From NCBI GenBank assembly GCA_964106915.2, contig OZ066915.1: 64,000 nucleotides of DNA. One strand, written 5' to 3'. The stretch comes from Podarcis gaigeae (lineage: Eukaryota). This document shows positions 4,501 to 62,659 of this stretch, one piece after another. The notes under the pieces are model-generated. The model was not told where the DNA came from. It worked only from the letters and a program-made list of their open reading frames with translations, and searched no databases. Every line of letters begins with the position of its first letter. Position 1 is the stretch's first letter. Both the position numbers and the translations under genes were made by a program.

Positions 4501-6499
4501 GTGGCATCCAGTATCTTTGCTCCAGGCCAACCTCAAGAACAGGGAGCTGAATTCAGGGGTAAGTACTAAGCCTATTCACCCAGCTCCTCAGAGTCATCCT
4601 CCTAGGCTAACCCTAACCCCTGTTGCTGAGCTATTAAATTACATGCTTGTTTGGAAAAAAACGAAGTCTCTCATATACTACTTTAGAAATTTGTGCACAG
4701 ATCAAAAGCTTGTGCGGCTTCCAAGAGAAGTTAAGTCATTCAGTGGGGATCACTTTGTTTTGCACATCACTCCAGGACCTAACATTCTGGACTTACCAAC
4801 AGTAAGAAAGGAGCAACTGTTCTGAGTTCCAGGAGGGAAAGATAAGGAGCCCCTTTTGTGCTTATATGACCTGCTTCTAGCCTTCTTTAGTGCAGTTCTG
4901 AGCTTCAAATGACCACTATGTGGTGCTATTAATGCAATTACCCAAATCTTGTTTCCCCCATTGCATTAAGCCTTGTAACTGTCGAGTAGCACCTGTTAGC
5001 TAGAGGCAGCGGTGGAAGTGAATTTCTGGTCTTCAGCTGCTGCCTTTGATCTCTTCAGTTAGTCCCTGATAAATTACTCAGAAGCAACGTAGCAGAAATG
5101 GAAATGCAGAAAGCTGAGTAGTTTTGCATGTGCCTTAAGGCTTGGTTATAATTACGTATGGGGTGCCCGACTCTCAACAATCCTGCCCTTATGCTGTTAG
5201 GAGCCAAAGGAATGGCAGTGCTACTTGGCATTTAGCAGCCCAGACCCATGTTATATTGTAGGAGATAAAGGCTTCTTATTGTAGTATATGAGGTGAAAGT
5301 CACGGTGAAGACCAGAGGGCTAGTATTATCAACTGACTGCAGGATGGCTTCCCATACCAACCCCCACCTTCATTGGCCTGGCACTCCAGTTGCAAATTTT
5401 ACTTGGATGAATGTCTCTCACTTTTGCCTTGTTCCTAAATTGTGCTTGGGCTTGGCAGACAGCAAAGCACATGGCAAGGAAGTATCTTGGGCTTGAATTG
5501 ACTGATGGGGAGCCATTGTGTTCTGTTCACCGTAGTCCAAGCTGCACTGTGGGTGGCAGCCAACCTTAGGGTGTTAATAACCCAAAAACCCATCAAGTCT
5601 CACAGTGGCTTTCTTCCCAATGGAGAGGCACATGGAGCAGATTGCACCACACCCAGAATTCCCTGGAGCCGATAAAGAGAAGGTTCTTGGCAACTTGAGA
5701 CTTTGACCTGTTATAATGATTAAACTGAAATTCAAATGCATTCACCATTTCCAGACAGCATTAACTGCCATGCTTGTGTCCAAATAACCAATCAGGTTGC
5801 ATTAGAAGTGGTTTTAGATTATTTACTTCCATTATTTGTTTGTTTCTCTCTCTGAGAAACTAAGACTTGGAAGGGCCACCTAAATGAGCAACAGCACAGT
5901 GGGATGGAAATGATGGAAGTATTGTGCTTTTCAAGCCATGTTCTCAATTACATTAATTGTGACAGAGACACACTTTTTCTGGTTGCTTGCCCATCATTGG
6001 TCTTTTATTTGTTCCCAAGAGTTGTTGAAATATGTACAGGAAGTCCAAGTTGCACGTCTCACTTGTTTCCACACATAACTGCTCTTAAAGTGGAAGCCTT
6101 CCATGATTAGCTTAATGTCTGAAAAGTGTATAAACCCAGAAATATACAGCATGGCGAATTTGTGAAAATTCATTTTGGCAGAGGTGACCATGTGAGTAGC
6201 AATTCTATGCTTCAGTTAATGGGATATAAGGCAGCACAAGTGTACACAGAACTCGTGTTACATTCTTATGAGCAATCTCCTCTGATATTAGCATCTAAGA
6301 AGGTATCCTGCTTTCAGGGCCTGATTGCTTACGTGTCCTGATAGGGTTGCTTAAATGTTGACATGTTTTTTGTCTGCTGACTTTTCAGTTGTTTTAAAAT
6401 GCTTTTTATTGATAACTTTAATATTTCTTGGAAACTGCCTAGAGGTTTTATTACAACCAAGTGGTATATAATTTTATTAAATAAATAAATAAATATTAC

Positions 6500-7259
6500 T
6501 GTCAGGACTGCCGCTAGGTCCCAGCTCACAGAGGACCAACGCCCAGTGGATATTATATACAAAAGTCTTTATTGAAGTTTAGTTTCCATTTCCAAGCTCT
6601 GGGCGCGCAGGCCCACGTCTTAACGCTAGACCGGCTAAGTCCCCTCTGACTCACTGCTCCACCCACACCAGTTTAAGATTCTAGCCCGGCTCCACCTCTT
6701 GCGCTGCTCTTTCCTGCGTTGGGTCCTTCTGCCCTCTGGGGTTCCCTCCTTCCTGGACTCCTCTGACGCGGAGCCTCCTGAGTCTTGCCCCTCCCTCCGG
6801 TGGGCTTTAGGACCTGGCTCCCTTCCCGGGCTCCCCGCTGTGCCGCGCTCCTGTACATTTGAACTTGGCGCGCGCGCCCAGCCGGTGACTTTCCTTCTGA
6901 CCGTTTCCCCGCTTCCTGATGTGGGTGTTGCCAAACCTGACTCCTCTCCTCCCTCTGGTGGTGAGGACACTGGTCCCGACTCCTGGGACTCCCCCTCCCC
7001 ACTGCGCTCTGGTGGAGACGCTGGCCCTGATCTCCAGCTGCTGTTCAGAGACTCCCCGCTGGCCCCTCCCTCTTGAGGTTTCTCCCTTGGAATCTCCCTT
7101 GCTCTGGCCACCGGCGCTCCCTTCTGTGAGTCCTCCGATTTGCTAGAGAGGCTTGTGGAATAACTCTGGCCACTGTCACTGCCTGCGCCCCCCTCGTACT
7201 CCTCCTCCTCACTCTCCATTTGCTCCCCCTCCTGTGTCTCTCCTTCTGAACCCCTGACA
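6500..7259 (-). mobile_element. Solo-LTR-like retroelement, copy A (760 bp), carrying a 194-aa ORF (7219-6635)
   Basis: Ends TGTCAGG...CCTGACA; perfect 5-bp TSD ATTAC (6495-6499 / 7260-7264); AATAAA at 6573-6568 about 70 bp from the 3' end; roughly 85% identical to 22358-23117 with no gaps across the ORF. Confidence 0.85.
6635..7219 (-). CDS. Putative LTR-encoded Ser/Gly/Glu-rich protein with C-terminal Arg-rich motif (copy A)
   Basis: 194-aa ORF, 82% identical (35 differences in 194 aa, no gaps) to the copy B ORF; synonymous changes exceed non-synonymous ones by hand count. Confidence 0.5.
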   Translation of the reverse strand: MESEEEEYEGGAGSDSGQSYSTSLSSKSEDSQKGAPVARAREIPREKPQEGGASGESLNSSWRSGPASPPERSGEGESQESGPVSSPPEGGEESGLATPTSGSGETVRRKVTGWARAPSSNVQERGTAGSPGREPGPKAHRREGQDSGGSASEESRKEGTPEGRRTQRRKEQRKRWSRARILNWCGWSSESEGT

Positions 7260-8639
7260 ATTACTTATTAACTGAAGGACAGAAAAGTAATATCAATTAA
7301 AAACCTTTTGCACCTTCAGGTAATTAGTTAGCCTAAGAGTTAAGTCTTGGTATTTTCACTCTTTGCAAGAATTATGCTAATGCAAAGAGACGGTGCCCAG
7401 TTATTGAAGTGACTGAATGTCAAGCAAAAATGGTTTGGGAGTTGTCTCTACTGTATGCTTTTTGTAACCTTCCAGGGCCTCTCGCCATCCTTCCATGTCA
7501 CAAGCATTAGAATCTGTCAAATTATCTACAGTGAAATGGAAAATGATGTGACAACCTAGCTTAACGTAAGCCTGGGAGGATTTGCCGACAGCTACAGGTA
7601 GGCAAGGGACCATGACTCCTTTTAGAGTTGAAAGATGCTGAATTGCTAGCTTCTCTTTTTTTAAAAAAAGGCAAGCTGTCTTGGAAACCCCTGAACTATC
7701 CATTTAGCTGTCTTGCATTCTGATATTGTTAGTGTCTGTGGCCCCACTGTCTGTGTCATATGTAGAGGAGTTAGAGGACTCTTGCACAGGAGCAGAGTGT
7801 AGTGATACAAGAGGTAAAGTCACTCTAGTTAGTGTAGTTTGCAGTGGTGGAACCAGAATAGTCTTTTCAGCTCTCGTAGTTGACATGGTAAATAAACATT
7901 GAGTTTGGAGGATATATTGGATCCCCTTTTGGGGCTAACTCCTGCTAATTTTCCACACTGGCTTTGCACAGAACACCTTTGTGCGTGAGAGTAGAGTGAA
8001 AAGGTGGTTTACTCTGCATTGGCGACACTAAGCAGTATGGGTTGCTTCACAAATTTCAGATATTGAACACTAGCCAACATTTTGCTTATCACCCTGTGTA
8101 CATTTCCTAGTAGTCAGTTTATTAGCAGGCTACTGTGTGTCCCTTTGTGCAAGCTGTGGTTAAACTAGGAAGTCTCCTAAACATCAAGGATCTCAAATCA
8201 GCTTCAACCCACATGCTGGGTTGGTCTAAAGCAGGTAACCATATTGTTCCAGTTTGGACAAAAATGGCAAACTGTTTCATTTGTGGCTTCCTGGTTTAAC
8301 CACAGCTCACATGAACAGGCAAAAGTCATGAGGCATGGTCATCTGAATGCTGGCCTGGATCCATTGATGTTTTGATTTGTTCTCATTTTCACCCCAACTT
8401 TTAACAAGTCACCTTAACAACAGGACCAGTGGTAGTCCTGCATATAGATTGGATTTTTACCAGAGGCAACAAAGGGTACTACAGGTTCAGGCAAACTTAA
8501 GCAGCAAATCCCTGTTTATTGAAGGTGAAAGGTCTGGGCAAGAGCCATCAAAGAAGTTTCAGGTTGCAAGGAGCTGCTTCTAAAGCCTATAACAGACATG
8601 CTCTCTGCTTTTACCATTTTTTCCACTTCAGGCCGGTGG

Positions 8640-13060: not shown

Positions 13061-13305
13061 TTAAGGGCGGTAGATTTTAATAATGTCTTTGATGACCCGT
13101 CGGCAGATTGGGCAGCAGGCATTGAGTTGTTTCTTCAGCTTAAGACCACAGGTGTTGCAGAGGCACATGTGTCCACAGGTGTAGATCACCACGTCCACCT
13201 CGTTGTCAAAGCAAACGGTGCACTCGCCATTCTTGCTGCTTGACGGCTCCGGAGGTGGGAACACGGGAGACACTGGAGGGCTCAGAGGTGAACTTGGAGC
13301 AGTCA
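13061..13305 (-). CDS. NEURL1B: NEURL1B coding exon 5 (245 nt coding), C3HC4 RING finger
   Basis: Acceptor CCTTGCAG|TG. Encodes [26 protein letters not shown]...[18 protein letters not shown]; stop TAA at 13063-13061. Confidence 0.97.
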
Positions 13306-16300
13306 CTGCAAGGAATGGGGAACAGAGAAACCTCGAGTCAGAACCACTTCCCTTTAATCTGAGCCTCTTATGTCAGGCTGCAAAGAAAAATGGGGAACGC
13401 AAAGGGTTGCTTCCTTTAGACAAAAGTGCTATGAACAAAAAGGTTGGGGAGATGTTTAAACGAGCAACACTTTGACACAGAGAGGGAACAGTAGAACTCA
13501 AGAAATGTTTGCATATATAAGTAAAACCTCTATCAAGCCTGTTTCCACATTCTTAAAAACTACAGTTTCAAACAGTTGTCATTTAGGAGGTTTTTAAAGA
13601 TCAAAGACATGCAGTATGACTTGCATGGGGTGCTGCTAGATAGACTTTGTCTATCATGATTTGTCCCTGCTGTGGCTGTTGCAGGAACCACTTATCCATT
13701 CTGTTTCGCTGCCTGGCAGTCACGCCGGCTGCAGCAACTTTCCAAATATGGTATTTGCAAGGGGTGGGGTACTTTCTTTAAAAGTCCATTTCTAAAGTGC
13801 ATAGCAGAATATTCAGGTGAATTTTATATTAAAACTTATCACAGAAACAAGCTGGCTTCTTTAAAAATTATTTACAGTAACTGGTACAGCAGCTCTGCAT
13901 TTAATGAATGGGATTTGGGGCTGTTCGTAGCTACCTGGCGTTAATATTTGTATGGTCGGAGATTTAATAATGAATTCAATAAATAAAAGAAAATGTTTTC
14001 AATCATATACTTTGTCTTCTAAAGCTCCATTAATAGAATCCTATAGCATGAGCTTTGAACCAGCAAAGGATGTTTTACCAGCTCTTAATATTTCTGGAGC
14101 AGAGTAGCTCATGATGCTAGATTAAGCAGTATTGACTTTCATCCAGCTGTGGTTCAGTGGTTGTGAAGTCCATATTTCATCCTTGCAGGATTTCAGTAGC
14201 ACCATGTGGAGTGACAGTTGATTTTGGGTTGTTGTTTTTTAATACAAATGATTTTGTATTGCATTTCATGTTCTATCTACCCTGGTTCTGCAAAAACCAC
14301 ATGTTACAGCCATAGCATAGGACAGCTCTTCATACACAAGGTCATTTCTTGTTACAAATGTCACATGGGGACCATATGACCCCAACCAAAGGAGCCCCTT
14401 CTGGAGCAGTTCATGAAACCACTGTGGGAATAGACCAGGGCTGAGGAACCTGCGGCCCTCCTGATGTTGGACTCATGACCATTTCCATCATTCCCACCCA
14501 TTGGCCATGCCTGCTGGGGCTGATGAGAATTGGCATCCACCAAAGATTCCCCACCTTTGAGATAGACAAACAATGGCTCTGTGTGAGCACTGGGGCAGCA
14601 CCTTGCTCCCCTTCCCCTAGAACAGGCTGCCATGCAATGGTTTTCCTGTTCAGGTAACGTGGGGCATCTACTCTTGGGAGCCAGCATGGTGTAGTGGTTA
14701 AGAGCAGTGGACTCATAATCTGGTGAACTGGGTTCGCTTCCCCGCACCTCCACATGCAGCCACTGGGTGACCTGGGGCTAGTCACACTTATCTGAAGTAT
14801 CTCAGCCTCACTCACCTCACGGAAGGGAAGTGAAAGGTGGGATATCAAGTCCAAACTCCTCCTCTTACTTATCATGTCATGGAGTTCTGGGTGCAACAGG
14901 TTTGTAAAGTAGCTTTGGTTTCTCCAGGCTTCACAGAATTGTAGAGTTAGAAGGGACCATGAGCATCATTTAGTCCAACCCCCTGCAGTGCTGGAATATT
15001 TTGCCCTATGTGGGGCTCAAATGCACAACCCTGAGTTTAATAGTCCCATGCTCTACCAACTGAGCCATCCCTCAGGGAGGAAGATATAACAGATATTTCC
15101 TACAGACAGCAACAGCTGTCACCTCATTTGTTGCTCTCAGGGTTTCTATCTGCTTGCATTAAAGTCTAACACAACCCCAACAGCAGCTTTAGGAAATCTG
15201 GACGCTCCTCTGTCACAGGAAGAAAGAGGAAGTTCGGCACACACTGCGCAAGTTACGACATGCCTCATTCAGGCAAAGCAAGACTCAACTTGTAAGGTCT
15301 GGCTCATAAGTTTTGGGCAGGGTGAAATGTGTGTATTCAAACAACAAGAGTGCAGGAGGCACAAAGCGAAAGGGTCCCTTACCTAGGGATGACTCAGAAG
15401 CGGAAGAAGACCTGTTCACGCTGAAAGCCATGTCTGAGTCACTGTCATATTGGGAGCCTCCAGGGGATCCTGAGGGAGAGACTGTCACAGGGCTGGACTG
15501 CACAGTGCCTGAAAATACAAAATAACAGGTTCCGTCAGCTTGAGGGGTGGGGCAGGAATCTCTCAAGCATGCAGTGCGGAACTGAGTCTACCCTGGGACA
15601 ACACCATCCATTTCATCTTCACAATAGACTTACTGTGTAATTGGGAACTTGGTATTTTGTAATACTTATTAGCAGGTTGATTTGTTTAAAGAAAATGAGC
15701 TTCCTCTGGTTCCAAGCTTGCCTTAACTACCTTGTTAAAGCTCACTCTATTCCCACCCAATTCAGATAGGGGCAAAAATCTGACTGGCAAGATCCAACCA
15801 GGAGATTGAAGACCAGTGGTGGAGAATGTCTAGAACATGGGCCCATGAGGCTGTTTTGACTAAGCCACACCCACCTGCCCCTCCACCTGGCATCATACAT
15901 GTGGGGTATGTGGTTTGGCTCAAAGCAGGGTTTGCAGGCATTACCAGTCTGAAGAAAAGGAAAAGAGGGTCCTGTGAATTCCACTTACAAAGGACCTTGC
16001 AAGCAGGAAATTAGGATCCCAAGAAAGATGTCAAGTTATTAAAATACAGCCTACCCCCACCTAGCCAAAAGGGTGCAGCCAACTGAGAGTGATGCCTATG
16101 AAGTCAGGATAGCTAAATGGAACTTCCCTGCTCGGAAGTGGTACATGTATCCAGACCAGAAGCTGAGAACAAAGTGAGAGTGGAATGTAGCCATAATCCT
16201 CATGCCCTGCTTGGCTGCTTTTTGGCAAGAGAATGCTGGAGCAGAGGAATCTTGGGCTGACTGTACAAGGCAATTCTGATGTTCTGAATTATGGAACTAC

Positions 16301-19300
16301 AATCAGCCCTGTTTCAAAGCAATGCTAGTTTTCAGCCAGGAATATAAAACTCAAGTAGTGATCAGACCTCTATATTGGCAAAACGGCCCATAAACTGGTA
16401 TGTGACCAAAAAGGGGCCTGGTGGTGGTACAAGAAGGCAGTCTGCATCTTTGCAACTGTGCTAGGGCCACTGAAGCTGCTTACAGCACATTGATCAATAC
16501 ACCAGGGCCTACCTGAGTGTTCTAGTCAGATGTGATCGAGATCCCTCTCTGCTCCATCGCATGGATCACATAGGCTTGTAGAAACAGTATACAGTGGTAC
16601 ATCTAGTTACGAACTTAATTCGTTCCGCAGGTCCGTTCTTAACCTGAAACTGTTCTTAACTAGAGGCGTGCTTTCGCTAAAGGGGCCTCTTGCTGCCGCT
16701 GGCACACAATTTCCATTCTCATCCTGGGGCAAAGTTCTCAACTCAAGGTAACTCTTGCAGGTTAGCGGAGTTTGTAACCTGAAGCGTTTGTAACCTGAGG
16801 TGTTTGTAACTCGAGGTACCACTGTAGAATAGTATGCACATTTACTAGCTTTATGAAAAAGTACATGCAAGTTGCCAGACAAGCGGCAGAGACATCTGGT
16901 TTTGACCATCTCCCCAAATATAAGATCATGCTTCAGCAATGCCAATGCAAGGCACAGCTGGTGACAACAAGGGTTTAGTTGGCCTATAAAATGCCACAGA
17001 GAGAGGCAACAGCCCACTGAAGCCAGGGAGAATGTAATGCCGCTCCAAAGCTGTAAAGAAATCTCAGCGTTACACTACACTACACCCATATTTTTGAGCT
17101 GCACTTACCTAATATTTTGAGTTGATTGATTACACCATGGATCGTGAAAAATACCCACAGTGACTGCGAGGTATCAACACACATCAGCATCCCACGGTTG
17201 ATCCCGTTTATTCCATGGTGCACTTCTCCATTTGGCAAGACCACAAAGCTGAGGATGTCCCCATTGTTGAGGACTGGGAAACCTCGGCAAACCACCCAGT
17301 ATTCCTTGCGATCCAGAAGGAAGTCTGGATCCGCTGGGAGCTCATTTGTTCGTAAAGTACCAGGATCACAAGAAGTGATGCCAAACGTGAGGGCTCCATA
17401 GTACGGCAGCCCCAGGTGTCCAACTTCCACAAAAAGGCTTTCGCCAATGTGCAAAGGCCGGTCGGAAAACACCAAAGTCCTATTGCTCTCTTGCCAGTTG
17501 GTGCAGGCAGACATCCGGTCCTGAGAAAAGTTAATGTCGGGCCCACGAGTAGGGTGGAAACGCAGATCTGTATCGAGAAAGGCAGGCACCACTTGGGCAA
17601 GCTGCCGCCTGCTTGGACAGCAAGGGATGGTGTGATTATCTGTCGGCAGCGCAGGCATACGGCTCAAGTTCAGATTAGCAATTTTGGCCACCACCTGGTT
17701 GTTCTCCAGTTCGTTGTTGTTGAAGTTGGCTGAGTCGTGGCTGCTCTGTGGAAGGCAAGTGCTGAGTCGTGCGTTGCTGAGACGGGTGGAGGTCATCGTC
17801 TCGGCAAACATGCTGTCTGTGAGGCAATGACAAGGAAAAGCTGTATTAGAGGCAAGCTGAAAATGGCAGCCTACCCTGGCTTGATCGTTGCTTTTTGGGC
17901 ACTCCATCATACTTAAAACATCAAATATGATACTTTTCCTAATCCAATTGTGTTTCCAATTAAAGTGGGCAAAAGGAACATAAAGAAAAATATCTGGAAA
18001 CACAGAATTTTCAAGGCAGTTAGGAATTCTTCCGTCAAACAAAGCTCCACCAGTATTTGCTATTCTACGGGAGCACTGTCCAATGGAACACCATACTACA
18101 AGCGGGTTGCCCGATGCAGGGGCCTCTATTCCTTTCAGACTTGTATTTGGTGCTCACAAAAAGAGACCTGTTTCTGTTCACTGCCTCACTCAATTGCAGA
18201 AAAGCAGATTCTGCAAACTACACTACCTGCTGGAGAGAATAAATATTCCTTCCTTGTCTCATCTCTCTCATGCCTCCGCACCCCCACCCCGTCCTTGCCA
18301 ATTTAATTCATGTAAGAGAGACTGGAAAGAGAATGCATTTAATCACTTTAGACCATTAATAATAAATTGTGTGTAATGTACTTGCATGCTAAAATAGCAG
18401 TAGTGACCTTTAAAAAAATGTTTCAAAGCACACTACAGACTATTTGTTACTGACAGGCTACATGAACAAGCGACAAACTCTCTCCCAGCACAACATCCCA
18501 TCTGATAGCGCCCAATGTAAACAAAAAAACAAAAAACCCACAAACATTTCTAGCCCCAAAGCATAAAACTAGAAACACATCACTCCATATGAACCATTCC
18601 CCTGTATAGTTATTGATAGTTGATAATGAGAAAAAGAATGCGTATAAGGAAAGCAAAGGGCAAGATACTTCGGCAAATTTTGATTTAGGACATTCAGATT
18701 TCTAAAAGGAAGAATCATCCTAAGATTATTTCCCCAAAGTCTTAGATCTATAATCTGGGGGCCACTACCTAGACGGTAATTCATGCTGAAATCATGGCAT
18801 GACTTGTGGATGGCAGCTTAAGGCTGCAGTACTGTGCGTGCTTACTTAGGAATAAAACACACTGAATTAAGTGGGATTTACTTCTGGGAAAACGTACACA
18901 GGTTTACACTGTTAAACTTGATTTTAAGTTACACATAACTCTGCTGCATTTGCATGCATTTTAGCCGCCTTAAAAGTGGAAATGTATTGAAAATTTATCT
19001 GAAGGGCTTAAAGTTGACTATCAATGCATATATGGAAAAATCAAACGTATAAAACAGCTTTCAATTTTGATTAGCCACATAGCTTTTCTTGACAGAAGGA
19101 ATCTGGGAGGGGGTGTTAAAGTAAAGCCTGTCTTCTTCCTCAGGATCCCAAGTAGCCAGTTCAATATTTCAAAGGAGTGGCTTTCTCTAAGTGCTTAAGT
19201 CATAAAAGCTTCACATCTACAATGTTAAGAGTTGATATAATGAATTTGTACATAGTGCATCCTGCTTTGTGAAGCATCTACAGTTCTATATTTGGAACAC

Positions 19301-22300
19301 CCTCTGTTCCCGTCTTCCAGCCACTCCCCAATTACTGACGCTACAAAAGTGATCCAACTTGGCCCTCACTTTCTCTTACATTTCTACCTGTAAAATGGTA
19401 ATAATAGTGATCTATTTCATATGGATGCTCTGAAGGGAAAGAGGCGGCCAAGCACTTTTGAAAGCTCTGATCAAAATTCAGCAAGAGTTAAGTGCTGTTA
19501 TGCTCATTTATTTTAATGGGGTTTTGGCACGCAGTCCAAATTAATTGACTGTGGCCAACAAGTGCTATAGCACATTGTAAACTATAGTTCTACAGACTAC
19601 AGGGGGGGAGAGAAATGGCCTGGTTTCTACCTGCTGCCTCCACGGACAAGCTAGCCATTGTATAATTCACTTCATAGGAGCTGTGCCCCTTCAACTCTAC
19701 CCAGGGTCATAATGCAGGATCTAACACACCACATAGCTTTCTGACAAGGCTTAGTAGGGCACAGTGAAAATGTAAAGACAATTTTCAGAATCACGCTAGG
19801 TCTTGGTATGGCATAAATACCCACAAGGCACAGAATAAATTTCAATAGCCTTTGGGCAAGGCACTTAACTATTCCTAGGTGATTGTTTAATTTTAAGCTG
19901 AAAAAGTGTCCCTTGTTTGTGTTGCAGAAGGACATGGAAAGGGGGCTTAAGAATTTGGGGAGGTGGGGAGAGGTTGTAGTCGTGGTTTTCAAAATTTTAA
20001 GCACCCCAATTTAAACCGTGCCTACTTAAGAATGATTTGAACTATTTTCCATTAATGCATTCATTATGTCATTATTGCTGAAGCTACGTTATCTTTAACA
20101 ATCATGTCCACAATTAAGATGACAGGAATGCCAAATCTGTCCTTTGAAGTCAACTGTAGAGCTGGAGATATGTGCAGTAAACCAATACCAGAAAGGGGGG
20201 AGGGGGTTGTGACAGCTTTATTCAGATAACCCCGGAGTACACCAGACACATGTATTAGTGCTCATGTTCTGAGAACACTGGAAGCAGCAGATTACATCAC
20301 AGGCAGCATCCAAGATCCCTAGTGCTTTGTAAACACATACTATCAGGCTTGTCTATAAGGACAAAAATAAGTCCACAATCATGGCTCACTGAGCTGTACT
20401 TCTAGGTACGCCAACTGAAGCCAAGCTATCACCTGAACTCTACAGGACAAGGTGATAAATCAAGAGCGAGGAATCTCTTGCCTGGACAGAATAGATTCAA
20501 GAAGAGGAAAAACCCAATGCTTTGGAAAAGCTTCCAAACTCTTGGAAAGAGAATTACGACATTGCTGCCCTCGCTGGAGTCCTCTGATAAGCAGAGAAGC
20601 TGGCGTTTCTCTTGTGTCAAGGTGCTGTGCTTTCTAAAAAACCCTGATAGGGCAGGAATGCCACATGAGAGGCTCTAAGTGGCCGTCACAGGAGATAATG
20701 GTTATAAAGCCTGAGCTGGAGAGGGAGGATGAATCATGGCACTGCATGGTACACACAGCTGGCAATTTGTGGAGCCAATGCAAGGGGAAGAGGCCTCATG
20801 CCATTGGATTGGTCTCCTTGGTTGTGGGGCTCACAGATCCAAAAGTTAAAAGCTTTCTCACACCAAGGGCACCAGTGCAACAAACACACCTACAGTTTTA
20901 TCAAGCGAGCTTATGTAATAGGAACAGGCTACCAATATAAATACTATGGGCAGTTTCTGGCGTTGGTTTTAAATTTCTGAAGTGTTGGCGTATTAATTTA
21001 GGCAACTGTAATTGGAGAAAAAATATCTGTTGCCAGCTTATCTGCCCCATGGTGCAATCCAATTTAACCACGATGGAGCAGAACGTCCGCCTGAAGATTT
21101 CATATTTTCACCATTGCTTATTTCATTTATTTATTACATTTACATTCCACCTTTCCTCCAAGAGCTCATAGTGGCACACCTGGTTCTGTCCTCCTCAGTT
21201 ATTACCCTCACAGCAAGCCTGTGAGGTAGGCTTGGCAGAGACACCGTGAGCTTCATACCTAGGTAGGGATTTGAACCCGAGTCCCAGGAACAGTGACTGG
21301 ATGAAAATGAAAGCTTAGTATCCGGGCTTTACACTTTACAACATAAGCACTGCTACCAACCTCACACAGCTTGTTCTGAGAGATGGGAGACATGACAAAA
21401 GGGTCTATACAGAAGGAGAATTTTTTTTTTAACAGACCATATACACCTACCTAGTATTTGCACTTCATGTGTGATTCCATAGACATCTATCAGTGCCCAG
21501 AGAGGCCCAGAGACTTTGACGCCACAGTGAAACAGAATCGGCTCTTCATCATTAACGCTATAGAAAACTCTCCCATGGCGGTCGACCCAGAACGCCAAGA
21601 TGTTGTCTCTTAGTGCAAACCTCTCTGGCAGGGCTTTGGCCCAGAAGCCTGGCCGTGTCACCAGGTCTGGGCAGGCGTATTTTGGTATGTCGTCTGCGCT
21701 CATCTGTGATGGATCGTGAGTGGTGAAGCCAAAGCGCAGGGCCCCGCTCCACCCGTGGTGCACAGACACCAGCTTGAGACGCACTTTCTCGTAGAGGTGG
21801 ATGGGCCGGTTGGTGAAAGTGACGCCGTTGCAGAAACTGTTCCTCCGAGTGGCTTTGCGGGAATGGGCATCCAGGCGTATGTTTTTTCCTTTGGCCTGGA
21901 AATGGAATCGCGGAGGTTCAGTAATGGTGAGGACAGACCGCCTCTCATGGCTACTGTTAGGCAGAGTGTAATAAGGCCTGTGGGATACAGAGCGAGCCTG
22001 TTGACTGGTGTCTGCAAATAATAATAATAAAAAAACAGGAAGAAGAGGCATTGTTAGGAATTTGCTAATTTAGGTTGCAATGCTAAGAAAACTGCTCCCC
22101 TCCCCCCCCGCCCCCAGCTACTGATATGTGCAGATTCTAGGCTAGATTTTAACAGACTAATCAGATACGAACACGCTCCTTATTTGGACAAAGTTCCTCT
22201 GCTCCCTGTTCTTGTAATCCTAGTAAGAATGACATTTTCCCAGTGGATAAAAATTCTGTCTCTCAGCCAGTGTTCAGCTGGAACCAGTTTTTAAATGAAT

Positions 22301-25300
22301 ACATTGCTAGATACAACTGACACCTCAACAGATACACAAACAAAAAAAAACCTTAGCTGTCAGGGGTTCAGGAGCAGAGACACAGGAGATGGAGCAAATG
22401 GAGAGTGAGGAGGAGGAATCCGAGGGGGGTGTAGGCAGTGACAGTGGTCAGAGAGATTCCACGAGTCTCTCCAGCGAATCGGAAGATTCACAGAAAGGAG
22501 CGCCGATGGCCAGGGCAAGGGGGGTGCCAAGGGGGAAACCCCAGAAGGAAGGGGCCAGCGGGGACTCCCTGAGCAGCAGTTGGAAATCAGGACCAGCTTC
22601 CCCACCAGAGCGCAGTGGGGGGGAGGAGTCCCAGGCATCGGGACCAGTGTTCTCACCACCAGAGAGAGGAGATGAGTCAGGATTGACCACGCCTCCATCG
22701 GAGAGCGGGGAAACGGTCAAGAGGAAAGTTACCGGCTGGGCGCGCGCGCCAAGTTCAAATGTACAGGCGAGCGGCACAGCAGGTAGCCCGGATAGGGAGC
22801 CAGGTCCTAAAGCCCGCCGGAAGGAAGGGCAAGACTCAGGGGGGTCAGCGTCAGAAGAGTCCAGGAAGGAGGAAACCCCAGGGGGCAGAAGGACCCAGAG
22901 AAGGAAGGAACAGCGCAGGAGGTGGAGCCGGGCTAGGATCTTAAACTGGTGCGGAAGGGATAGTGACTCAGAGGGGACTTCGCCGATCTAGAGTCAAGAC
23001 GTAGGGCTGCACGCTCTGGGGTTTGAAATGGAAACTAAACTTCAATAAAGACTTTTGTACATTACATCAACCGGGCGTTGGTCCTCTGTGAGCTGGGACC
23101 TAGAGGCAGCTCTGACATTAGCGCACTAGGTTGAGGTGGGGAGATCCAAACTGCAGTAGTCACACTGCTACTGTTTGAGGCCAAAAGAGGAACTGACTAG
23201 ACAATTTCATGGCTGACATAAACAGATTTGCTCAACAACTGCTTCTACAATCTAAAACATGGGTAGGCAAACTAAGGTCCAGGAGCCAGAACTGGCCCAA
23301 TCGCCTTCAAAATCCGGCCCATGGACGGTCTGGGAATCAGCCTGTTTTTACATGATAGATTGTGTCCTTTTATTTAAAATGCATCTCTGAGTTATTTGTG
23401 GGGCGTAGGAATTCATTCATTATTATTTTTTTCAAAATATAGTCCAGCCCCCCACAAGGTCTGTGAGACAGTGGGCTGGCCCCCTCCTGAAAAAGTTTGC
23501 TGACCCCTGATCTAAAACTTGGGGCAATTGTTAAGTAGGCACCCCAGAAGACAGAGATAAGTTAAGTAGGCAGCCAGTCTGGAGCCCTGTACCCCAGGCA
23601 GCCTATGTGTGCTACTGAGAGCAGAGAGGAAGACTGACATAAAGAGAAGCTGCCAATATGTGGTAATGTTACTTGCTGCCACCCTTCTGCCTCTTTTTGG
23701 TCCCCAATGCATGTCCTGTTGGAAGTGACTTGAAGCAACAGTGCCCTCCTCTACCAATGAGCTCTGAAGCAGACAGGTAGATTGTATGTTTGGAACAATG
23801 ACCGCATATCAACAAAAGGAGGTGGCAGATTTATCTTAGTGGCACTGAACACCTCCAAGATGACCTGCCCATCATTTAAAAAGAGAAAGTGAGTCACCAA
23901 GTTAGTAACTAATCTGCAAGCAACTGTTGGACCACCCCAGGCAACCAAGCATTTAACCATCCCTAAAAGGCCCCTGGTTCTGAGCTCTAAGTGCTATCTT
24001 TGGCCTACTTAGTATCCACAACATGCTTTGTAGCTCTAAGAACTAGTTTTCAATTGTATGTTGCTGCAAATGTTAGCTGCTGATGGCTTTAATTCTGGAA
24101 ATCCATTTGGGGCATCATAATTGTGTTTTAGCATAAACAGCATGCATTTTCCCTTATCCAATCTTTATTACACTGAACTACAAGATAAAATAGGGCCATC
24201 AGAAACCCCCAAAGCTAAATGAAGCAGCCCTAGGGCGGAGGTGGGGGAAATTGGCTCCTAATGAAACTGTTTTTGTAAGTCTGTCCTATGACTTCCCCTT
24301 ATGGCAGGAACAGTGTCATGGCAAATATTCAGTAATCATTTCCCTTATTTTTAATGAACCACACACACACAAAATAGCTCAGTGAGACAAGATTAAAGCT
24401 CCCACCCTAATAAACCCCAAACACAAAAGTCAAAACAGTTTTATTGTAATTACAAGTAGCCACATGCCGAAATATTAACATAGCTGGAAAACAAAACTGC
24501 ACTAAGGTCCTGCTTGGCACTTTACACGGGAGGAATAGGGATTTGTTTAAATATATTTTAAAATACCTTCACAGCAGGAGCTTCAATATTTTTGAATTGA
24601 TACTGTGCAAGTGACAATTGTTTCAAATAATGGCAACACCTCTCCTTAAAAACAAACAACACATTCCTAACATTTGTGACTTACTTCTTTTACTTAACAG
24701 TAATTAAAATGCATACCAAAAAGTATTAGCTGACCTCAGCAGCCACACACTAAACAGCCCAGAAGAACTCTACTTCAGAATTGATTCCTGCCAATTCTCT
24801 CCCATTATTTCCCTCCCAACACCCAGACAGGCTCTTTCGATTGCATAAAGGTGAATTCAGAAAAAACCCAGTCAGGTGTTGCACTTCTAAGCCACGTTCA
24901 CACCATACATTTAAAGCATGATACCGCTTTAAACAGTCATGGCTTCTTCCAAATAATCCTGGGAATTCACAGAGCTGCCATTTTCCAGAGTGGTTAAACA
25001 ATCAATCCCTCTTCACATGAACTCTAGGAAATGTAGCTCTCTGTGGGGAAGAGGGGCCTCCTAACAAACTACAGCTCCCAGAATTCTTGGGAAGTGCATC
25101 ATAGTGCTTTAAATGTGTGGTATGAATGCAGCCTAATAGTTGCAGATTCTGAAAGCATTTCACAGGGTCTCTCAGTCTCTACAGACCTTTCTATGGAAGC
25201 AGCTCAAGAATGCAATCCAACCCATTCCAGCCTGCAAATACATCCCACTGTGTTAAGTGGTGTTTATGTACAAGTAAACTTGCACAGGACAGGGCAGCAA

Positions 25301-62413: not shown

Positions 62414-62633
62414 GTATCTCAGGTTACAGACGCTTCAGGATACAGACTCCGCTAACCCAGAAATAATACCTCGGGTTAAGAACTTTGCTTCAGGATGAGA
62501 ACAGAAATCGCGCGGCCGCCGCGGCGCAACAGCATTGGGAGGCCCCCATTAGCTAAAGTGGTACCTTAAGAACAGTTTAAGGTTAAGAACAGACCTCCAG
62601 AACGAATTAAGTGCTTAACCTGAGGTACCACTG
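62414..62633. mobile_element. Tc1/mariner MITE of the same family as 16592-16824, opposite orientation, one end damaged
   Basis: Ends ...GAACGAATTAAGTGCTTAACCTGAGGTACCACTG-TA; internal sequence resembles the reverse complement of the 16592 element. Confidence 0.75.
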
Positions 62634-62659
62634 TATAGAGAAGTTTTAAATAGTTTTAG

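Follow-up and report, generated by a model that had tools for sequence, protein, structure and literature searches.

Why should a solo long terminal repeat (LTR) carry a long open reading frame (ORF) that evolution appears to have preserved? The question is raised by a 760-bp solo LTR at 22358..23117 on the plus strand of a 64,000-nucleotide stretch of contig OZ066915.1 of the lizard Podarcis gaigeae (assembly GCA_964106915.2; the window, below, is this whole stretch as analysed). The LTR belongs to subfamily A of a Tf1/sushi-type Ty3/gypsy chromovirus, and a first, sequence-only reading had taken its ORF for an accessory protein kept inside the LTR. This proposal did not survive, since in five subfamilies full-length copies show the frame running on uninterrupted from pol. 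Judged from these reading frames, the LTR ORF very likely encodes the C-terminal tail of Pol, i.e., of its integrase. We also consider it probable that the window holds Ty3/gypsy solo LTRs whose ORF is a moderately conserved integrase tail, likely concerned with nuclear entry and with a chromatin tethering that would steer insertion.

The window contains two copies of the LTR, each 760 bp long with TGTCAG...CTGACA ends. The subfamily-A copy at 22358..23117 is flanked by the perfect 5-bp target-site duplication (TSD) TTAGC at 22353..22357 and 23118..23122, and it is 99% identical to both LTRs of the full-length copy L031, which share an outer TSD. The second copy, at 6500..7259, lies on the minus strand, inverted relative to the first, between perfect ATTAC repeats at 6495-6499 and 7260-7264; it belongs to subfamily B, the youngest sampled and satellite-enriched branch, and is 99.7% identical to the LTRs of the full-length copy L092. 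The sequence-only reading had described these lengths, ends and TSDs correctly, and the different TSDs together with the full-length LTR-internal-LTR copies support its view of two independent insertions and solo LTRs. The subfamily-A frame comprises 210 open codons (22359-22988) and a stop codon at 22989-22991; in full-length copies, this U3-encoded segment (22359..22991, plus strand) is in frame with pol and forms the final 210 codons of Pol/integrase. Its subfamily-B counterpart (6635..7258, minus strand) contributes the final 207 codons (7258-6638) with the stop at 6637-6635. The two LTRs differ at 104 of 760 positions (13.7%; 72 transitions and 32 transversions) with zero indels. The AATAAA poly(A) signal, first placed about 70 bp from the 3′ end, starts 74 nt before it in the R region of the subfamily-A LTR (23044..23049, plus strand), and lies at 6568..6573 (minus strand) in the subfamily-B LTR. 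An open frame in a single copy is weak evidence, because the strand contains only 11% T, and dinucleotide shuffling of the two LTRs gave at least 200 open codons in some frame in 107 and 120 of 2000 cases, or 5-6%. The evidential weight lies in the retention of the frame across lineages and in the codon-position pattern, rather than in one open frame.

A search of the lizard's own genome found 2748 candidate loci, of which 40 were scored. A 30-nt motif of the family has 2272 exact matches in the genome, compared with none for a control motif. We collected 144 distinct full-length LTRs (82 solo LTRs with a 5-bp TSD, 31 3′ LTRs, 22 5′ LTRs and 9 others), a sample skewed toward young, top-scoring copies. 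They form seven clusters, 76-95% identical, and the frame is open for at least 200 codons in 129 of the 144. LTR-internal-LTR elements with TG...CA ends, a common outer TSD and a polypurine tract (PPT) were found at L031, L092, L162, L165, L170 and other loci, and 21 of 23 LTR pairs have a 5-bp TSD common to both ends. The full-length copies of about 6.6 kb contain a gag with a CCHC knuckle that overlaps pol in the -1 frame. Pfam domains follow in the order gag, protease (PR), reverse transcriptase (RT), RNase H (RH), integrase (IN) and Tf2-1 SH3, and the best PDB match of the element is Ty3 Gag-Pol (E 8e-135). The Pfam scan found no env in the element, and pol reaching the 3′ LTR leaves no space for one. 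The 5′ LTR is followed by a primer-binding site (PBS) that is complementary to LTR nt 613-623 and does not have the TGG start of a tRNA-type PBS. In 29 of 43 junction rows, which include overlapping loci, all 11 nt pair perfectly, and four PBS variants are each paired by an LTR of the same lineage, showing covariation. Self-priming is a hallmark of the Tf1/Sushi group according to the accessible text of PMC6317226. The family is a young and abundant Ty3/gypsy (Metaviridae) chromovirus with Tf1/Sushi-type priming. Of the two classes first offered, an LTR retrotransposon of lizards or an endogenous retrovirus, the former stands on the Pfam order and the Ty3 match in the PDB, and the latter is ruled out by the missing env and by a PBS that pairs with the element's own LTR instead of starting with the tRNA-type TGG. 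Further, older relatives with LTRs about 66% identical to the family, together with internal sequence, were seen at telomeric ends and array edges (L185:5541-6324, L231). Microsatellites of the (AAT)n, (TTG)n or (GTAT)n type host several insertions (L004, L005, L064/L065, L069, L075).

The complete layout reads 5′ LTR, self PBS, gag, pol and 3′ LTR, where pol consists of PR-RT-RH-IN-SH3, a decayed chromodomain, an acidic linker of about 140 residues, the PPT and the U3 tail. The chromo-like segment of subfamilies A and B has no match to Pfam Chromo, being below detection. We regard it as a decayed chromodomain homologue because the aligned segment passes the Pfam cut-off in four of four distant relatives. 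The pol of L092 is a single frame of 1566 codons, which runs across the PPT and terminates where the LTR ORF does; natural pol ORFs ending at the LTR stop were also found in subfamilies A (1412 codons), C (1528), D (1229) and F (1591). The chromo-like motif is in frame with the LTR ORF in 35 of 55 distinct 3′ LTRs, and 31 of these 35 are open throughout; a further 16 are shifted, and four have no such motif within 800 nt. With pol open and in frame through the PPT until the LTR ORF terminates, this ORF is best explained as an integrase C-terminal tail and no accessory gene. The UniRef proteins P0002 (1498 aa) and P0001, both Pol of Podarcis muralis, end with the same tail at 67% identity. A profile search against 1.84 billion representatives found 10 proteins, and the named ones are all from Podarcis; automatic Pol annotations of Podarcis already contain the tail, unremarked. 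Distant families are organised alike apart from a smaller U3 part, which measures 65-76 codons in two local copies, and their C-terminus likewise combines a hydrophobic-[C/N]-W motif with basic residues. The complementarity of the PBS places the inferred RNA 5′ end, i.e., the U3/R border, at 22970, some 30 nt downstream of the TATA-like CTTAAA (22940-22945), so that the ORF fills U3. The 11-nt self-primer segment occupies 22970..22980 (plus strand) in the subfamily-A LTR and 6637..6647 (minus strand) in the subfamily-B LTR, where it overlaps the final codons of the tail.

How strongly is the tail constrained? Likelihood profiles on the five natural pol ORFs gave omega values of 0.07 for RT, 0.1 for RNase H, 0.1 for the integrase core, 0.17 for SH3 plus the chromo-like segment and 0.3 for the linker. 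For the U3 tail, omega was 0.4 (grid range 0.3-0.45), with twice the log-likelihood difference (2dLL) from omega = 1 amounting to 52, and tail codons 1-185, which exclude the promoter codons, still gave 0.4 (2dLL 42). Between the first 627 nt of the two window LTRs, we counted 42 synonymous and 43 non-synonymous differences with an NG86 dN/dS of 0.26. An earlier hand count of about 44 to 36 had put the ratio near 0.3; it agrees with the raw value and somewhat overestimated the constraint, as the ratio is about 0.4 after correction for transitions and CpG, and higher against the singleton yardstick given below. The purifying selection on the LTR frame claimed from the letters alone holds after this correction, at moderate strength. 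When CpG transitions, other transitions and transversions were split, class-weighted pN/pS between subfamilies was 0.36-0.48 in five of five pairs. Differences between the 5′ and 3′ LTRs of single copies, for which two of 23 pairs with unequal TSDs were left out, amounted to 48 non-synonymous and 24 synonymous changes (28 and 9 outside CpG), so these post-insertion changes look neutral outside CpG; the corresponding counts between subfamilies A and B outside CpG were 40 and 35. Variable columns are distributed over codon positions 1/2/3 as 42/57/100 in U3 and 13/11/16 in R-U5. Indels between subfamilies within the tail are in frame, e.g., a 21-codon insertion in D and F. The constraint on the tail is real but moderate.

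The tail is dominated by serine (18%), glycine (14%), glutamate (13%) and arginine (11%) and contains nine S/T-x-x-D/E sites. Neither the LTR ORF, the whole tail nor the antisense ORF matched any family in a Pfam scan. Except for a terminal basic helix, this S/G/E/R/P-rich tail is predicted to be disordered, and a structure prediction for the 421-aa tail from a shallow alignment of five sequences had a mean predicted local distance difference test score (pLDDT) of 38.6. In the subfamily-A LTR, the codons of the basic helix and the hydrophobic-[C/N]-W motif lie at 22887..22952 (plus strand; helix 390-405 in the tail model, compared with the C-termini of P0134, P0136 and P0002), overlapping CTTAAA. 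The helix and the W motif may serve as a nuclear localization signal (NLS) or in chromatin binding. The linker upstream of the PPT is predicted to contain, at low confidence, a short helix ending in Phe, which is followed by an 8-residue linker and FxGF. From the chromo motif to the FxGF the distance is 69-70 residues in 10 of 11 proteins and 116 residues in P0136, and some proteins have the motif doubled; F68, F77, G79 and F80 of this region are nearly invariant across 15 sequences. The short linker is S/T-rich in the lizard family and D/E-rich in distant families. According to the accessible parts of PMC9987994 and 10.1101/624023, a TND-interacting motif (TIM/IBM) consists of a helix, an acidic or phosphorylatable linker of 8-16 residues and FxGF, and binds a LEDGF-type TND (LEDGF, HRP2, IWS1). 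The lizard helix-linker-FxGF, conserved across distant families, looks like this pattern and is a putative LEDGF/TND-binding motif, unlike the known motifs in its place in pol upstream of the PPT, outside the LTR ORF. Helix-linker-FxGF was seen at a constant spacing behind the chromodomain in all lacertid families encountered, and doubled in a distant family (L169:597-1868, minus strand, residues 57-89; L096:4044-4680; L102:4134-4790).

How the frame would come to reside in solo LTRs can be outlined as follows. An RNA starting near LTR nt 613 would carry U3 solely in its 3′ copy, which would be translated as the C-terminal part of Gag-Pol. By established LTR biology, reverse transcription would then copy the 3′ U3 to both ends of the element, so that every LTR, including solo LTRs derived by recombination, carries the frame without its start. 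Selection would act through replicating full-length elements only, and solo LTRs would be passengers, probably with no protein product; the solo LTR at 22358..23117 has no upstream pol, and its ORF is upstream of the inferred transcription start. Within the integrase, the tail may serve for targeting, comparable to the CR motif that is encoded in the LTR of plant CRM or to the disordered C-terminal end of the Ty1 integrase, and such a module would help to account for the way in which subfamily B piles up in terminal satellite arrays. We give the tail a little less than an even chance of steering integration, and a role in targeting centromeres is doubtful.

The satellite in question is AT-rich, with a unit of about 510 bp (L054:506-1016) containing internal subrepeats and a HindIII site, and has 6271 exact 22-mer matches in the genome. 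It flanks five of the 30 top subfamily-B loci, compared with one of 30 for A, none of 30 for D and none of 20 for C. It adjoins telomeric repeats at one end of chromosomes C1, C2, C3, C8 and C9 (C1:138.49-138.85 Mb; the first 0.3-0.45 Mb of C2, C3, C8 and C9; L185-L243), and was not seen in the loci examined at the opposite ends of C1, C2, C3 and C9. Some insertion points within the satellite unit recur on different chromosomes. Of 20 fixed-step windows on C2, C3, C8 and C9, where the chromosomes were picked from earlier matches but the positions were not, 13 contained satellite (the seven with less than 1 kb of it were left out); these 130 kb included 59 kb of element sequence and 18 subfamily-B LTRs with 14 distinct flanks. 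The arm of C1 from 1 to 120.6 Mb (119.6 Mb) contained 92 subfamily-B LTR ends, corresponding to 65 insertions. The density of subfamily B is therefore about 108 insertions/Mb in satellite versus 0.54 on the C1 arm, or about 200-fold, in an estimate from which two sets are excluded, C1 satellite windows picked in part where the satellite list had gaps, and a C8/C9 set with two known matches. The element makes up about 45% of the sampled terminal satellite windows; the mean transposon content of chordate satellite arrays is 7% in the accessible text of a cross-species atlas (10.64898/2026.09.17.752431). Stacks of older subfamilies occupy telomeric ends as well as the edge of the C2 array. Most Lacertini are acrocentric, and a HindIII satellite is centromeric in Iberolacerta, according to the accessible sections of PMC10654178; the terminal array may thus be centromeric, and the ~510-bp satellite may be regarded as a candidate centromeric satellite. 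As a conjecture, the tail may be the cause of the subfamily-B satellite pattern. On the contig C32 (29.5 Mb), many top matches of A and D and nested element stacks were found, but none of the 40 top B matches; our guess is that C32 may be a heterochromatic or W chromosome.

Several observations weigh against a conserved targeting tail. From one family to another, the tail varies between about 65 and 230 codons and is highly variable in sequence. Its terminal codons coincide in part with the promoter and the self-primer, so part of the constraint is on DNA. Singleton changes are already depleted of non-synonymous ones (pN/pS 0.59-0.70 outside CpG), and against this yardstick the ratio between subfamilies is 0.52-0.69, with p<0.05 in only one of six pairs. 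Of the 16 shifted 3′ LTRs, 11 are off by one base; the differences in the out-of-frame copies inspected are located in G runs before the LTR, and two DNA contig sets across the pol-LTR junction both break at G runs. The shifted copies suggest that the tail is perhaps not strictly required in cis, or that G runs are error-prone in replication or assembly. An FxGF motif, if functional, suggests binding to readers of active gene bodies, at odds with accumulation in satellite. As for the distribution, part of the satellite density stems from tandem amplification, some satellite blocks on C1 and C3 being element-plus-satellite duplications with one TSD, old copies could be lost by satellite turnover, the satellite-free end of C1 is also dense in subfamily B (eight LTR ends in the first Mb), and subfamily B inserts on arms too, e.g., at 6500-7259. 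One-base losses in the G runs preceding the LTR are frequent (L019, L024, L048, L062, L070, L080 and others), and the Podarcis entry P0006 ends in the same one-base-shifted frame.

The most serious competitor draws on several of these points. It holds that the tail is translated within Pol yet is mostly a passive spacer, in which selection keeps a stop-free, soluble sequence of similar composition together with short DNA signals, and that the satellite pile-up reflects tolerance, array amplification and slower loss instead of targeting by the tail. A tail omega far above that of the core, 16 of 55 3′ LTRs out of frame, the several-fold variation of tail length between families and the duplicated blocks on C1 and C3 would all be expected of a spacer. 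However, families with no more than about 30% identity again have a basic helix, a hydrophobic-[C/N]-W end and a stop codon next to the promoter, and the omega of 0.4 persists when the promoter codons are excluded. Moreover, amplification of one insertion cannot account for at least 14 distinct flanks in 130 kb. We consider a passive spacer improbable.

Another explanation is a separate accessory protein expressed from U3 through a spliced or internally initiated RNA, with an ATG at the PPT end as start and GTAAG after the 5′ LTR as splice donor. The model would be sag of mouse mammary tumour virus (MMTV) or lentiviral nef, which overlap U3 and, in retroviruses that have an env, are genes in their own right with spliced RNAs. 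The lizard frame resembles them in lying inside U3 and in that it would be expressed from the 3′ LTR only, and differs in being the end of pol in an element with no env. Subfamilies A-F and the Podarcis relatives do have an in-frame ATG 4 nt ahead of the 3′ LTR, GTAAG follows the 5′ LTR, and the U3 ORF is intact in copies shifted out of frame. Nevertheless, pol is in frame and open into U3 in 31 of 55 3′ LTRs and in five subfamilies, distant families have Val instead of Met at the ATG position, and the AAG of the supposed donor belongs to the self-priming duplex, making this explanation very improbable. A separate ORF with its own ATG had been suggested by L031, which is out of frame before the LTR, and was overturned by the other full-length copies. 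A second, separate U3 product besides the Pol fusion is possible. Finally, we all but dismiss a frame kept open and biased by composition (a T-poor strand, transition and CpG bias), or selected as the antisense shadow ORF (179 aa, 22448-22987, minus strand): despite the shuffles that reach 200 codons, a shadow-frame NG86 of 0.37 and second codon positions more variable than first, the signal is still present in transversions and in transitions outside CpG, genuine changes after insertion are neutral, the sense frame joins pol physically without a break, and the shadow ORF shares third positions with the sense frame and is rejected by three stops in subfamily B and two in E.

An integrase tail filling the whole U3 has a precedent in plant chromoviruses: in CRM elements, a targeting motif of the integrase (CR) is encoded in the 3′ LTR, as described in the accessible text of PMC3059260 and PMC3605345. 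Plant CRM group A (CRM, Beetle; CR motif/CHDCR) and the lizard element are alike in that the LTR encodes the end of the integrase, with pol extending into the 3′ LTR, and in that the young lizard branch accumulates in a terminal satellite, a candidate centromere. They are unlike in several respects. The lizard element is of the vertebrate Tf1/sushi type and self-primed, whereas CRM uses tRNA-Met, and it keeps a decayed chromodomain upstream of the PPT, where CRM has the CR motif instead. Its tail has no Pfam match, and many lizard copies also reside on chromosome arms. The lizard element is thus CRM-like in layout, perhaps in location, but no member of CRM. With the Tf1/Sushi group (V-clade: Sushi-ichi, Amn; fungal Tf1, Maggy), it shares gag-pol, PR-RT-RH-IN, Tf2-1 SH3, the position of a chromodomain-like segment, self-priming with no tRNA PBS, and TGT...ACA ends, as far as these are covered by the accessible parts of PMC6317226 and PMC3601003. 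Unlike that group, its chromodomain is below Pfam detection and is followed by about 350 further residues, of which about 210 are U3-encoded. The C-terminus of the Ty1 integrase reportedly carries an NLS and a targeting domain. The accessible text of PMC8487063 describes a C-terminal module in that integrase as large and disordered, a likeness to the lizard tail that is an analogy only, as Ty1 is a Ty1/copia element in which the integrase, encoded outside the LTR, is situated upstream of RT.

A full-text literature search, outside which most subscription journals lie, found no description of a vertebrate chromovirus with pol filling U3 or of an FxGF motif in an integrase, and the accessible portions of PMC3601003 and 10.64898/2026.10.14.759201 contain nothing on coding LTRs. 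When a solo LTR carries a conserved ORF, this can be an integrase tail copied into both LTRs and does not have to be an accessory gene. We put forward only tentatively, as rather unlikely, that the lizard family is an independently evolved vertebrate counterpart of CRM, in which the chromodomain has decayed, the LTR-encoded tail would direct insertion into centromeric satellite, and the LEDGF-type FxGF would help or modulate it. If the tail does target centromeric chromatin, these lizards would offer a young, high-copy case of centromere-seeking retrotransposition in a vertebrate, one that comes with a natural subfamily series and with a small, separately testable domain.

The host region of the window contains Neuralized and RING exons on the minus strand, at 21362-22069, 17080-18153 and 13061-13372, which belong to a gene of a Neuralized-family RING E3 ligase (NEURL1-like). 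The LTR at 22358 is located about 290 bp from one of these exons and is antisense to the gene; the LTR at 6500-7259 is on the strand of the gene, below the RING exon. A repeat of about 210 bp at 16588-16799 and 62418-62637 occurs as two inverted copies (78-88%) and is probably an interspersed element.

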